Positions 3,882 to 32,825 of a stretch of DNA of 64,000 nt are shown here, piece after piece. The first letter of the stretch is position 1. Each line of letters begins with the position of its first letter. The DNA lies in contig NW_027117345.1 in the NCBI RefSeq assembly GCF_038025025.1, forward strand, positions 1,240,001-1,304,000, in the 5' to 3' direction. Under the pieces are notes generated by a model. That model was not told the DNA's origin. It did not search any database and worked only from the letters and a program-made list of their open reading frames with translations. Origin of the DNA: Phyllosticta citribraziliensis. Lineage: Eukaryota. Made by a program: the position numbers and the translations under genes.

Positions 3882-6800
3882 ACTAGGCAGCCTGAGAGGG
3901 CTGATACGAAAGACGCGCCGCTCGATTCGTCACTGTCACCGACCTCAACCACCAACAAAACTCTCCTTTTCTCTGGCAACGCTCCCACACCGCGCTGCGC
4001 TGCCACTAGGCGCACTGCCGCCCGCCGTCATGACATCGACTTCTCCAGTCCCTGCACACTGAGATGCCTGAATCTGACCACCCACTCACCTGCATACCCG
4101 CTTCAACGGCGCGCCCGCGCATCCACTGATCGTCCACCTCCGCGCGCGCAGCGCCAGCTGGTCGGCCAGGAACGCACTGCCCTACCTGTCCTTCTACATG
4201 GCAACGTGCGTACAGGTCACGCTCTGAACGCCGCGCCGCCGTTGTGGTGGCTGACAGGCAGGCGAGCGCCTCAATCAAGCCCGCCGGCGAGCAAGCTCCG
4301 TCCAGATCAGATCAGCACTCACTCGGGCGCTCAGTGAATGCTTCTATTCGTCCGCGCCATGGCTCCAGGCATCCAGACATCAGACGTGCCTCCACCCGTC
4401 CGCTGGCCCGTAGGCAGGCAAAATGTGACGATCTATCCCTCTCCGTCAATCTTTACATCTGTCAAGCATGCATATACATACAGACAGTACAGCAAATCGA
4501 TACACGCGTACGCAACGGCGGCGAACAAGCAAAAAGCAGACACACAGGCAGATAGACGGGCGGTAAGCCCCTTTGCTGCGCCGAATATCGGACCAGCGCG
4601 CCACCCGTCGAACGAAAAAAATGTGCGAATGGCGAGTGTCTGCGCGCGCGATGACCAGATCAACCCTTCCAACCCCCGAATCGTCCCATCTCGTCTGATG
4701 ACTGCGAATCAGAATCATTCGAGACGATCCTCCACTGCTCTGCGCTGCGCTCGCGCTGAAACTGAAGCTGGCCGCTCACAGTCATGGCGCCACGAGTGAG
4801 CGAGCGAGAGTCCGCACGTGGTAGGATTCTATGCTACCCCTATCTCATGGTCCCCTTCCTTCCACACTATCCGCTCACCAGTTGGCGGAAGCGCATCGTC
4901 TCCTCCCCCAGCAAGCCATCGACCGACGCTCAGAGTGGAATTCTACCAATACCTTCACCTGGGGCGAATAACTCAGTCGCTGCGTCCCCGCTTCCCCATT
5001 TCTGGTCCCTGTCGTCATCGCGTAGGCTTTTGCCACTGCATTGTTGCACCAAATTTCCCATGCGGGCCACCGCCTGTTTTGTCGAGGATACATTGGCGTA
5101 TACTGTTTCGAGGACTGATTGCTGACCGTCGAGTGCATGTAGCCGTGATTGAAACTACATCACTAATTTCTTGCGGGCGGCCACGGGCGATGCTTAGCGC
5201 CGTGGCATCTTTGAAGTTGGGAGACGTGGCGGTCGTCTCCAAGTCTTTTGCTCAATGATGGTGACAATCTGCCACGCTCAGTGATTGACGTGCCAATGCA
5301 CTGCACGAAAGTAGCGCAGGGTCATGAGCCACCATTGTTGAAGAGTGGGCTGATGGGTCTGTGAAAGCAGGAACGTAGAAGGAAGGACTGCGCAGTGGGT
5401 GTCTGTCATGAGAAATAAAACCTTCTGGTGCTGCTGCTACATCTATGGAGCGTTCTTTTACTCCTGCGGATGGAGCCAGGGAGTGGTGGTTTACTGCTCT
5501 TGTTTCTCCTAGGGACTTTTGTCCACTATGGCAGCAGGACCTGGGGAGTAACATTTTTTGAAACCCAGTGGGAGATACTCCAGAAGCAAATGCCTCTCCT
5601 CTGGTCCATTTGTCTGCAGCAACGAGGTCGGCGGAGCACAAGGCCATCGTAGGCAGGTCTTTGGTAGTATGTATCTCCTGCACAGGACTCTACAACCGTA
5701 TCCCTCGACCCCCGTTTGTGCCTTTGAGTAGAGCCCAAACAAAAAGGCGCCGCAATGCAATGTGTTGCGGTCCCCTCAGAGGCGACTGCTCCGATATTAC
5801 TTGAATGGTACGTGGATAATCTCTGATTGCAAAAAAATCTCCTTTGCATCGCGATATACCAAGCCGTTTTCAAGCGACGCCCAGTCAAGGCTTGCTGAGA
5901 CGAATGAGATGAGATGATAGAGAGATAGGCGAGACACAAGCTGCGCAACCTCGAATGAAGACGAAAGACGAGATTCACCCTATATGTTTCCCCCATTTGT
6001 CTGCAGTTTTGAGTCTGTAGCCGGGCCTGTGGTGGGCGTCGCCTTTTGCGCCGATGTCAGGGAGAGGATGAAGTGACAAGTGCGCATTCTTCGACGACAG
6101 GAACTGGCAAGCCATCCGACCACTGCCGCTTGCAAAGGGGATACCTGGCCATGGTTTCTATTCCTGTAGGCGCCGGCGGTTGGAGAGGCACGCGGCTGCA
6201 GAAGCTTCGGCGTCCGCCCCTTTCTCCATGTAGTCGTTGTTTTGGGTTGGCAGCCGGGTCCCTTGGCCGAGACTTAGCGACCTGGAGACTTGGATGTCCA
6301 TGAGCACTTGGTCCAAAGCTAGTGGCAGTGATGGTCGTTGGGCACATGATGTTGACAAGGATTGGTTGTTCTTCCTTGGGGGTTCAAGAAGCGCCCTATC
6401 CTGTGGCCCATTTTTTGCGCCGAGGGTTGCAGCAATGTCTAGGGGTTTCGACGATCGAAAGCCAAGATTCAACGAGCCTCGTGAAAGGTGATTGGCCTCG
6501 TTGCTGCGCGAATACGCAAATTGAGGTCCCGAAGCTAGAGTCGCTGCCCGTCCAGCAAGCGCGTCAGCTGGGTGCGTGGGCGATGCGCAACTTCACTCTC
6601 GACGGCGCTTACGCGTCCCATTGTGCGATGCTTTCGGCTCTTCGAATCTCCGATCGCATGCAACTAGATCTTGATTTTTTTCTCCGCAAAAAGGTTGGGG
6701 AGCCGGGAACTTTTCTAAAAATCAAAAATCTGGTTGATGAAACGGCGGTCCCAGGTGTGTCGCTTGCGTCCAAACGGAACTGTCGTTTCACCACAAATAG

Positions 6801-29612: not shown

Positions 29613-31192
29613 GGTTGGAAGAGGACCGGGGGCTTAGGCGATGACGAGGTGTTTCTTTGGCGATTGGTGATGTTGGATTGACTGCGTGGGACGCTGTCGA
29701 GAGGCTCTGTAGAAAGTGTTAGGAAGAGCTGTTTGAGGAATGAAAGCATGTTGCCTGATTGAATGTTTTAGACGAGAGTGTGTGTGGATGGACTGGGAGA
29801 GGCTCGCCACAACAATCATAACAACTGTGAGAGATCTGATATGAAAGCGAATGGCAGCATATTGGGTTGCTGCCTCCACTCCTTGGCTTTGGCGCAGGCA
29901 GATTCCAAGAGGAAAGGAGGAGAAAGATAGAAGAGGCGAAGAAAAGTTGTAGAAAGAAGCAACATTTCGGAAGGGCCCCAGTACGTTCAAACATACCTTG
30001 CTCTCTCCTCAAAGGCTCTAAGTCTGCCAGATTCCGCGACACTCTAATGCAGACTCAAAGCCGTGCTGACGGAAAAGAAAGAAATTTCCAAAGTGTTCAG
30101 CAGTCGACGAACAGTAGATGACGCGGTGAAATTTCTGCAGCACAGAAGTCGCTCAATAAATAAGTGATCTGGCTGCGTTGTGATGAAGTCGGCGTTGGAA
30201 GAAAAACATGAGAGAGTCGACCACACGGGTCGGCGGCGATCCGATGTCTGGTTTGGTGTTGAAGGCGGAGGGCGAGTCAAATGGCAAGCTGAGCCGAGAG
30301 CCGGTTCAGTTTGGGAGTTTGTAGCCGGAGTTTCGACGACCTTCCCCAACCTCACCTCTTCTCTTCTCCGACCTGTCAATCCAACCACTGCCTCCATGCG
30401 TATGAATCTTTCGTGGACTTGCCCGCATTCATTGCCGTCGCTATGATCTTTCGCTAGTGCTGTGACGACAGGCTCTCTGGTGCCCTCTTCGCTCTGTGGA
30501 GCCCCTCCGTCACGCTTCAATTTGTCGCCGTTGCCAGAGTCCACTTCCGTCGCTCTTCGCCATCATCAAGACTCCAGGCGCTTTCCATTTTATCTCATGC
30601 AGCGTACCGATTTTTCCATTTCGCATTTCTTGCACGACTTGAGTGCATTCAAGAGCTTGGACAACATCAGGACGCGAGTACGCGTGCATGCAAAGCATGC
30701 TGAAACAGAAGAGATGGCAAAATCAGAGAAAAGGCTCTGCAATGCCATGTTGGCAAACTTGGGAATTACCCAGGATTTCTGCGGTCATGTTCTAAGATGG
30801 CAGTATGGGAAATGACCATCTGGGCGGACTCAGAAAGTGTCAAGGCAGCTTTGTGGTTTGCACTTTACCTGCTTGCGACGCCTGAGGCAGCGGAGGGGCG
30901 AGGGGCCAGGCATGCAGATGCGGTGCGTTGTATCGCGAGAATGGGATGGCGGTGGTCGAGCAAGAGCAAGTGGTGCTGAGGTTGGGACGTAGGGTGTCCG
31001 AGACGGTAAGCCTCAACATATGCAAATTGTGGATGCTGATGAGGCTACAGTAGACTGGGTGAGGTGGCGGGGGCATGGGCGGCGACAGCAACACAAACTA
31101 TCAAGAGGATGGCGACGACGGCGGCGACAACAAACCCAGAGCGGCCCGCCCATAGCAAGTACCGGCAAACCAAGACCGCCTGCGAACTGAGG

Positions 31193-31455
31193 TATATAAA
31201 CTGCAGCCGCGACACCATTCGTATCAGCCGGTTAGCGCAATGGAACAGGACTCAGTCTCAACGCTGTTGCCACCGACACCTTCAAGTGTAAAACCCGAGG
31301 GTGTGTGAGCGTAGGGTTTACGTGGTGCTGGAAGTAATTCCCTAGGCAGCCTAGACTTGAGTTCGACTCCCTCTTGGGGAGGGACGATAGAAGGGTAAGC
31401 GCGTTTCTTTTTGATCTTTCGCGCGATGTCGAGGTTCAATTTTTGTTTCTTGTAG
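31193..31455 (+). ncRNA. Candidate structured non-coding RNA with Pol III-type promoter elements (family unidentified)
   Basis: TATATAAA 31193-31200, A-box-like TAGCGCAATGG 31233-31243, B-box AGTTCGACTCC 31360-31370, T5 runs at 31408 and 31440, five short hairpins. It does not fold as a tRNA. Confidence 0.35.
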
Positions 31456-31709
31456 CTTTTGGCAAAGGAGCGAGCATTCGTTCACCACCACAGCTGCGCT
31501 TAGGGACCTGTCGTCCGCCACCATATTGCGGCTAAGGAGCTATTGCTTTACTCTGTCTACTTTCGTAATTTCTTCTCTTTGGACTACTAGTCTGCCCATG
31601 TCAACGACATCTTTTTCCCTCGTCCTCGATTCAAAACCGAACCTGGCATCCAAGCCATCATCTCTATCCGACATCCCCATGGCCAACTCTCCACTTCGCA
31701 GTGTCCCCT

Positions 31710-32825
31710 CTACTCTTTTCCTGTGCCGCTCGTCTCCTGATTACAATCACTTGTACCGTCCTCCTTCCTCTTCTCTCTTCCCCGGCGCTCCACAGCCGCA
31801 ACTGTCTGGGCAGCCGAGACAGCCGCAGGCGACACGCCGCAACCCGCCCACATGGCATACCACGCAGCCTCGACCTCCGCATTGCCGGCGACAACTGAAC
31901 CCTGCTTCCCCGCATTCTGCTCGCCCTCCCTCTGGACTTTTTCGATGGCGGCGGCGCGCCGTGCTTCCGCCTGGGCGAAGAGCGCGGTGCGCGTGGCTGT
32001 CATGGAAGCGAGCATGTCGGCCGTGGGGCGTAGGTGGGCCGCTCCTGTTGCAGGTGCTTCTCCACCACCACCGGTTGCTGGTGCCGCTGCTGCTGCCGCT
32101 GCAGTGGGAGAAGCGTGAGGGTGTAGAGGTAGCGCTTGTTCAGGCGAGCGGTGATGCTCTGCTGGCGTGGAAGTTGGTGCATGAGGCTGGAATGGTGGCG
32201 GAGTTGCTGCTGCTGCGTGGGCATCGGCCCGTACAGCGTGATGGTGAGGACGGCCGTGAGGATGCGCGAGCAGCAGGTCGATGGGCAGAGATGGCGGAGT
32301 TGGAGAGGCGAAGCGTCCGTGGTGGTGATGGTGCTGTGCGAGAATTGGTAGGGCTCCAGGCGCTGCCGGGAGTCTGTGGTGTGGGTGCTGACCATGTGGG
32401 AGCACAGGTCGTGCGTGGCCTGGGTTAGAGTACTGGTGATGGTGGATAGACGGATTCGGCGTCGTGGTCATGCCGGGATGGCTACGCATAGCAGCCGCCA
32501 TGCCGCTCGGCAGGCTTTGGTAATCGGTCGGAGCTGGTTGCTGTTGGCCGTTGGTGTCCCGCGATGGCGACATGATGGCATGGCGTGGTTCCCACCTGGC
32601 GTTGGTCGCAAACGAGGCAGGATTGACGAAATGAGTCTCGGTCTTTAGGGTGGGCGTGTAGCAGTAGGCGCAACGCAGGCCGTTGTGCTCAGCCTGGGGC
32701 GGAGGACCGTCGGCTCTGGTGTTGTTTGGGCAATTGACGGTGCCGGCGAGCGTGTTGGAGCAGCGCTGGCCGCGGGATTGTGAGCGGCCGCAGATGTTGC
32801 AGGTCCAGTGGTAGGTCCTGCACAT
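31710..32825 (-). CDS. Hypothetical protein with Cys-rich (putative Zn-binding) N-terminus and His/Pro/Ala low-complexity body, 371 aa
   Basis: ATG-started uninterrupted ORF in good context (GCAATG). MC-x6-C-x2-CG-x8-C-x9-C...C-x2-C pattern. No family recognised. Confidence 0.6.
   Translation of the reverse strand: MCRTYHWTCNICGRSQSRGQRCSNTLAGTVNCPNNTRADGPPPQAEHNGLRCAYCYTPTLKTETHFVNPASFATNARWEPRHAIMSPSRDTNGQQQPAPTDYQSLPSGMAAAMRSHPGMTTTPNPSIHHHQYSNPGHARPVLPHGQHPHHRLPAAPGALPILAQHHHHHGRFASPTPPSLPIDLLLAHPHGRPHHHAVRADAHAAAATPPPFQPHAPTSTPAEHHRSPEQALPLHPHASPTAAAAAAAPATGGGGEAPATGAAHLRPTADMLASMTATRTALFAQAEARRAAAIEKVQREGEQNAGKQGSVVAGNAEVEAAWYAMWAGCGVSPAAVSAAQTVAAVERRGREKRKEDGTSDCNQETSGTGKE

Follow-up and report, generated by a model that had tools for sequence, protein, structure and literature searches.

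A five-copy family of tRNA-Lys-like units with RNA polymerase III promoter anatomy in Phyllosticta citribraziliensis: candidate genes for a lineage-specific RNA

Introduction

What does a complete set of RNA polymerase III (Pol III) promoter signals specify when it lies between the genes of a fungus and matches no catalogued RNA family? The question is raised by an element in a 64,000-nt stretch of the Phyllosticta citribraziliensis genome; this whole stretch is referred to here as the window. A preliminary description, made from the letters of the window alone, had offered three options: a Pol III RNA of ~190–220 nt, a tRNA-derived SINE relic or a DNA site bound by TFIIIC. In type-2 Pol III genes, the A and B boxes are recognised by TFIIIC, which positions TFIIIB on the TATA box. 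To our knowledge, the catalogued Pol III repertoire of fungi is short, consisting of tRNA, 5S, U6, SRP and RNase P RNAs, snR52 and a few milRNAs. Of these readings, that of an RNA gene fits best. We give about even chances to the view that the element is one of a small set of gene copies for a lineage-specific Pol III RNA (~175–190 nt) that derives from tRNA-Lys and serves as a protein-binding decoy or scaffold, where we infer both the transcription and the mechanism.

The window is fungal DNA, as indicated by the pentafunctional ARO1, Dor1/COG8 and OMP decarboxylase domains found in it, and its Dor1 protein shares 95% identity with the Phyllosticta citriasiana protein. The genome comprises 31.35 Mb in 22 contigs.

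Results and discussion

Promoter anatomy and limits of the unit

The TATA box, A box and B box of the preliminary description and its T5 runs at 31408 and 31440 are all present at the positions given there, as are the five inverted repeats that it named. The window has the ordered set of TATA box, A box, B box and T run at a single place, and none of 200 dinucleotide shuffles has it, for a search pattern whose spacings were chosen with the element already seen. The presumed transcription start was placed from the position of the TATA box in the 5S and tRNA genes of the same genome, where a similar TATA-like word is present at 21 of 61 tRNA genes and the same terminator wording is found 3' of tRNA genes. 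The 3' limit of the unit is 31412 rather than the 31455 proposed earlier (Table 1).

The element is intergenic, with the Dor1/COG8 region on one side and, on the other, a 371-aa gene of the opposite strand whose stop is ~300 nt away. This reading frame (31713–32825, − strand), the 3' end of which is turned towards the candidate RNA gene, carries no Pfam domain, and the one relative found is a P. citriasiana protein with 54% identity.

Table 1. Coordinates of the features of the candidate unit and its flanks in the window
Feature	Position	Strand	Remarks
Upstream 21-nt motif	31125..31145	+	69 nt 5' of the TATA box; candidate family-specific promoter element
TATA box TATATAAA	31193..31200	+	33 nt 5' of the base equivalent to tRNA G1; 5' edge of continuous copy-to-copy homology
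TATA-to-start spacer	31201..31225	+	inferred start ~31222–31225
tRNA-Lys(CTT)-like head	31226..31266	+	acceptor 5' strand and A box (31233–31243)
Anticodon-stem remnant in the head	hairpin 31248–31258	+	loop shortened, no anticodon; D-stem 3' strand lost
Helix H1 with apical hairpin H1a	31229..31275	+	31229–31243 pairs with 31264–31275
Hairpin H2	31276..31304	+	7 bp, 15-nt loop
Long hairpin H3, apex variable	31306..31365	+	31316–31358 resembles SRP RNA helix 8 (window and C9 copies)
B box and tRNA-Lys-like T-arm 3' strand/acceptor 3' remnant	31360..31379	+	B box 31360–31370
Hairpin H4, refolded from the T-arm/acceptor remnant	31368–31384	+	
Pol III-type terminator TTTCTTTTT	31404..31412	+	3' edge of the family; T5 31408–31412
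~33-nt dispersed repeat units	31467..31550	+	outside the gene; flank co-duplicated with the C9 copy

A family of five complete copies

The copy-number check suggested in the preliminary description was carried out as a DNA search of the genome with the window copy. It returned five candidates, all of them copies of the element, on contigs C8 (the window copy), C9, C5, C3 and C7, so the element is not single-copy; a second search with the C3 copy as query found the same five loci again. Neither fragments nor truncated copies were found in the two DNA searches, which ignore very common words, and two pattern searches of the genome. A sixth pattern match, on C4, was an 18-nt chance match and was dropped from the family. 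The preliminary description mentions neither the further copies nor the descent from tRNA-Lys nor the upstream motif.

Every copy is complete. The type-2 Pol III layout, with an intragenic A box followed by a B box and an oligo-T run, is found in all five, with a TATA-like word that lies at −40 to −43 relative to the A box, an A-to-B distance of 117–128 nt (~120 nt), an invariant B box and a T5 terminator 47–49 nt 3' of it. Pairwise identity among the copies is 71–93% in the RNA region and 57–94% in the TATA box and spacer (44% for shuffled sequences), and drops to the shuffle level upstream of the TATA box; identity over the 200-nt flanks is 45–51% upstream and 45–58% downstream, compared with 44–46% for shuffles. 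The neighbouring ORFs differ between loci and have no relationship to one another, and their proteins are ordinary, with F-box, Vps15-like, OTU, Zn-cluster-associated, tRNA synthetase and Gryzun domains; the C9 copy is flanked by two weakly F-box-like ORFs. A coding role was rejected, as 10–11-nt indels distinguish the copies. The anatomy and the five-copy conservation support the Pol III RNA option in the form of an uncatalogued type-2 unit of ~185–190 nt, whereas an extension to 31455 is not supported. The Sm-like site that had been pointed out at 31438 lies 3' of the terminator and is lacking at that position in the other four copies.

Beyond the edge of continuous homology, a 21-nt motif sits 69, 90 and 100 nt 5' of the TATA box in the C8, C5 and C7 copies, respectively. 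Ungapped scores were 18 for C8/C7, 17 for C8/C5 and 12 for C5/C7, the maximum among 630 control pairs being 12. The genome holds three exact matches, each preceding a family copy, to a pattern that was built from these same three sequences; none of six inexact matches lies 5' of any family copy. The motif is partial and not significant in C3, is absent in C9 and was not found before the SRP or U6 gene of the genome. The comparison points to a candidate family-specific upstream promoter element.

A dispersed repeat borders the window copy on its 3' side, with 28 matches in the genome compared with 7 for the control, and its units occur in 9 of 36 control loci. These ~33-nt units form short degenerate arrays, several of them with a shared ~25-nt motif in front, and are also found at window position 5445. 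The repeat was rejected as a Pol III element in its own right: it is abundant and dispersed, and 20 of its 28 loci scanned contain no Rfam gene.

Ancestry in a tRNA-Lys gene

When the segments outside the boxes were compared with 44 distinct mature tRNAs, the tRNA-Lys(CTT) variants held the top five ranks, with a best z of 3.3 and none of 300 shuffles as good. The comparison drew on 61 tRNA genes found, of which 60 were used and one, with no B box, was skipped. Because the set is incomplete (63 of 714 candidates scored) and the Lys test is post hoc, having been made after the match was noticed, support for descent of the family from a tRNA-Lys gene is moderate. In the alignment to tRNA-Lys, the acceptor 5' strand and the A box are kept and the D-stem 3' strand is lost, with an insert of ~90 nt before the B box and an extension of ~30 nt before the terminator. 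The family shares with the tRNA-Lys(CTT) genes of the same genome, its best sequence match outside the boxes, the TATA position, the A and B boxes, the terminator wording and the occurrence as dispersed single copies between genes; unlike them, it has the insert and the extension and lacks the D-stem 3' strand and any tRNA call. ARAGORN with introns permitted found no gene in 12 sequences and there was no RF00005 match, in line with the earlier remark that no tRNA cloverleaf is seen; at relaxed thresholds, ARAGORN gave many inconsistent calls. A cloverleaf is not formed, the acceptor and T stems being unpaired and the anticodon loop shortened. An ancestry in 5S rRNA (SINE3) was rejected, as 171–297 of 300 shuffles matched the score of each copy.

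Spread of the copies

Such ancestry is also expected for a low-copy tRNA-derived SINE-like repeat of the AfuSINE2 type, or for a duplicated tRNA pseudogene, which may be transcribed but would have no host function. Either would account for a tRNA-derived head and B box with no cloverleaf, for five dispersed copies and for the lack of homologues elsewhere in the collections searched, which hold few fungal genomes. Target-site duplications (TSDs) can vanish from old insertions; at all five copies the best direct repeats are only 3–7 nt long. An A-rich or simple-repeat 3' tail is absent, and the T5 terminator ends every copy. Of the features of SINE2 elements, the family thus has the tRNA-related head with A and B boxes and lacks TSDs, a homology edge at the start site and tailed or truncated copies. 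Homology that begins at the TATA box and takes in the upstream motif, together with the lack of TSDs, tails, and truncated or decayed copies, is the pattern of the dispersed tRNA and 5S genes in this genome rather than that of a retroposon; a Pol III transcript would not carry the TATA box or the upstream motif, which argues against retroposed spread. The B box, ~120 nt from the A box and behind an insert, and an interior that is constrained and changes in ways that preserve pairs are likewise at odds with a SINE or pseudogene.

AfuSINE2 of Aspergillus fumigatus is a tRNA-related, SINE-like element of 140–493 bp with no cloverleaf and, where numbers are given, 1–5 copies; it is described as having TSDs and boxes that are degenerate, with a LINE-like tail in one case (PMC5063351). 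By that description, the family resembles AfuSINE2 in its relation to tRNA, the lack of a cloverleaf and the small number of copies, and differs in having neither TSD nor tail, in boxes that are intact in 5/5 copies and in homology that includes the promoter. By eye, no likeness to the sequences in Table 1 of that report was seen. Taken together, we consider the SINE or pseudogene explanation unlikely. What stands of the relic option in the preliminary description is the tRNA ancestry; against the rest speak the constraint, the promoter region shared by the copies and the absence of both TSDs and truncation. A selected multicopy Pol III RNA gene appears to fit better than a SINE, and is favoured by homology from the TATA box onwards, by the upstream motif, by the lack of TSDs and truncations and by the paired 5' helices described below.

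Constraint and fold of the interior

The C8 and C9 genes differ by 18 mismatches in 219 aligned bases with no gap, whereas their co-duplicated 3' flank (~120 nt) has 24 mismatches in 121 and 6 gaps (gene versus flank, Fisher p 0.003). Invariant columns are clustered even when the A and B boxes are excluded (p 0.003; 0.02 on gap-free columns), and a model with invariant sites describes the alignment better than one with equal rates (lnL −603.1 versus −609.0). The region of the H1 3' strand and H2 has 32 of its 44 columns invariant; the H3 arms, with 18 of 51, are the least conserved part.

The RNAalifold consensus of the five copies contains four successive hairpins. Pairing was retained in 97% of 200 cells for the 40 pairs counted, with two-sided changes at 4 pairs; the count leaves out 12 of 52 predicted pairs, in the terminal hairpin and in the H3 apex, where the alignment is poor, and is biased towards structure by a fold derived from the same five related sequences. 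H1 with H1a (12+4 pairs) and H2 are 100% paired and unbroken in every copy, with one two-sided change in H1/H1a, where four pairs vary on one side, and one in H2; the H3 outer helix is 93% and H4 92% paired. Folding of the H1+H2 alignment gave z −2.6 on the + strand (1/200 shuffles) and −0.5 on the − strand (60/200), for a region selected afterwards and a null of column shuffles, and forcing H1 and H2 costs 0–2.6 kcal/mol per copy. The fold of the whole alignment is not significant (z −1.4, 15/200). Single copies gave z values of −0.96 for the window copy and +1.22 and +0.44 for paralogues, so that the dense structure of the preliminary description is, for the whole RNA, no better than chance. 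Its individual stems fared little better: AACAG/CTGTT is missing from the consensus fold, CTAGG/CCTAG is disrupted in the closest paralogue, GCGCG/CGCGC has its second arm 3' of the terminator and AAACCC/GGGTTT has no two-sided change among the copies, while TCCCTC/GAGGGA is kept as a hairpin, albeit a variable one. A pseudoknot between the H2 loop and 31314–31319 (87% paired, no two-sided change) is possible but unsupported. Judged from these comparisons, the interior looks to be under selective constraint and the H1/H2 fold to be conserved.

Two further explanations can be weighed against this pattern. If the copies were Pol III pri-milRNA genes, Dicer would cut H1 or H3 to give RNAs of ~21–25 nt that are loaded on Argonaute. 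A nearly invariant 22-nt block on the H1 5' arm would suit such a product, but it overlaps the A box, which accounts for part of its conservation. The family has no long near-perfect stem, H1 consisting of 12 interrupted pairs and the z values of the overall fold running from −1 to +1, and the H3 arms are the part that varies most. In Neurospora, milR-1 to -4 are transcribed by Pol III from intergenic loci that carry TATA-like, A/B and poly-T elements, and a tRNA precursor gives rise to milR-4 (PMC3547838). The family resembles these Neurospora crassa loci, compared by description only, as a set of intergenic non-tRNA genes of Pol III type with the same promoter layout in a filamentous ascomycete, and differs in lacking a long stem of the Dicer type. 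We regard the pri-milRNA reading as distinctly unlikely.

Alternatively, the copies could act as DNA, as sites bound by TFIIIC and TFIIIB that serve as chromatin barriers or organisers of the ETC or tDNA-insulator type, with any RNA being incidental. In favour of this, some of the best conserved parts (TATA box, A and B boxes, upstream motif) are signals at the DNA level, and the copies are located between ordinary genes. A DNA site needs, however, neither a terminator nor a conserved non-box interior with strand-specific, G-U-tolerant pairing, and ETC sites have only a B box, whereas the family has both boxes. The TFIIIC-bound site of the preliminary description leaves the conserved, pair-preserving interior unexplained, and we hold a purely DNA-level role to be very unlikely.

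Resemblance of H3 to SRP RNA

In the window and C9 copies, H3 aligns with helix 8 in this genome's SRP RNA, the C9 copy having an exact match of 13 nt. Alignments as good were obtained with 7 and 3 of 3000 shuffles and with 18 and 19 of 3000 genomic controls for the two copies, and with 0–3 of 1500 controls for H3 alone, for a likeness noticed post hoc among three RNAs, two strands and five copies. The z value is 4.6–5.3 in these two copies and 1.7 in C5, and there is no signal in C3 or C7. In four of the five copies the insert can be aligned in collinear order with SRP RNA, beginning at its position 90, and the 5' part of the insert has no significant match to SRP RNA (678/1500). A profile of the five copies misses SRP RNA, a two-copy profile reaches E 0.4, and the covariance model of the SRP S domain from this genome recovered just a 20-nt piece (E 9.6). 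Compared with helix 8 of fungal SRP RNA (RF01502), H3 of the two copies shares the outer stem, a 3-nt 5' bulge and a GNRA-capped tip; unlike SRP RNA, the copies have a 4-nt insertion and no UGUNR Alu motif, long helix 5 or Rfam match. The symmetric loop of helix 8, which binds Srp54, has an invariant A-C pair and an adjacent G (PMC4605306). The invariant A of this loop is altered in both SRP-like copies.

A common origin of H3 and helix 8 is best treated as an unproven lead, tentative and with the chances clearly against it, and an SRP-related function is less probable than that. One explanation built on it holds that the RNA is a tRNA/SRP chimera, in which the S domain of SRP RNA was the source of the insert and which binds or titrates SRP proteins. 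The match of H3 in two copies and the collinear inserts would be accounted for, but the post hoc choice, the silent C3 and C7 copies, the negative models, the altered A and a canonical SRP gene at another locus (133.6 bits) make this explanation highly improbable. A fuller version, very doubtful as a whole, has two parts: a tRNA-Lys frame that captured the SRP S domain would have multiplied to give five regulated genes under an upstream element of their own, and the chimera, a functional RNA, would modulate SRP or ribosome-associated factors, or serve as a decoy for them, in this plant-associated fungus.

Other RNA classes and homologue searches

No Rfam family reaches its gathering score anywhere in the window, in keeping with the preliminary description, and between 30900 and 31700 the search at E ≤ 10 returned just two chance-level matches; at the four paralogue loci and one chance locus, Rfam yielded nothing real. 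The SRP and U6 genes and 29 5S genes of the genome were located elsewhere. Membership in the SRP RNA family was rejected on the lack of a covariance-model match, a UGUNR Alu motif and a long helix 5, and membership in RNase P RNA on the lack of an RF00009 match on the copies. The snRNA and snoRNA classes (U6, Sm class, C/D, H/ACA) were rejected as well: no Rfam match was obtained, U6 is encoded elsewhere and the boxes are absent from the alignment as judged by eye. Antisense matches to U6, SRP and 5S RNAs were no longer than chance (scores 6–8).

Viral, prokaryote and metagenome collections, which contain little fungal DNA, gave 15 short matches (1 and 0 in viral contigs, 4 and 0 in prokaryote genomes, 10 in metagenomes), none of which scores with the family model. 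In one of the metagenome contigs, the chance match resembles a very short tRNA remnant with A-box/B-box-like parts, followed by an ORF of bacterial appearance. Three sequencing runs contain the stretch or part of it, and the look-up listed no RNA run that does. The literature searched contains no description of the family. In the passages and supplementary text of Li and Breaker 2017 (PMC5640933) that were compared, no motif corresponds to it. A 144-nt 'intergenic structure 2' of Pezizomycotina, reported by Gao et al. 2021 (PMC8216456), may bear on novelty, as may the milR sequences.

A possible mechanism and its implications

In the reading as a family of RNA genes, TFIIIC on the A and B boxes would recruit TFIIIB to the TATA box of each gene, and Pol III would start near 31223 and stop at the T5 run at 31408–31412, leaving a UUU-OH 3' end for the La protein. 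With the D stem, the anticodon and the acceptor stem lost, neither cleavage by RNase P or RNase Z nor charging of the RNA would be expected. It would then persist as an RNP with four hairpins that acts through protein binding, much as BC1, vault or VA RNA do, in the role of a decoy or scaffold; translation-related factors would be the likeliest targets, the binding partner being a guess. The upstream 21-nt motif might render transcription regulated, and the copies would have spread as DNA including the promoter, as would the tRNA and 5S genes that are dispersed in this genome.

Rodent BC1 and comparable RNAs illustrate how a tRNA gene can come to specify an RNA with a fold other than the cloverleaf, with the A and B boxes retained and control elements added upstream. 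By analogy only, the family would likewise be a refolded tRNA gene with A/B boxes and an upstream element; it differs from BC1 in the parent tRNA, the lineage and the anatomy. Should the selected family be real, filamentous ascomycetes would make new RNAs from tRNA genes, as mammals did with BC1, and some of the 'low-copy SINE-like' sequences of moulds would be host genes.

Other Pol III-type loci in the genome

Some further loci came to light during the searches. The genome-wide search for the RNase P RNA family gave no match, and neither did its control search. The U6 gene (C13:588044) is seemingly interrupted after ~75 nt by an intron-like stretch, as seen by eye. A tRNA-model match of 38.6 bits at C9:1169468–1169571, with an intact 5' half and no recognisable B box, may be a further tRNA-derived unit. 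Two near-identical tRNA-His genes (C9:1724559 and C9:1616305), ~108 kb apart, have 54-nt introns and similar 3' trailers.
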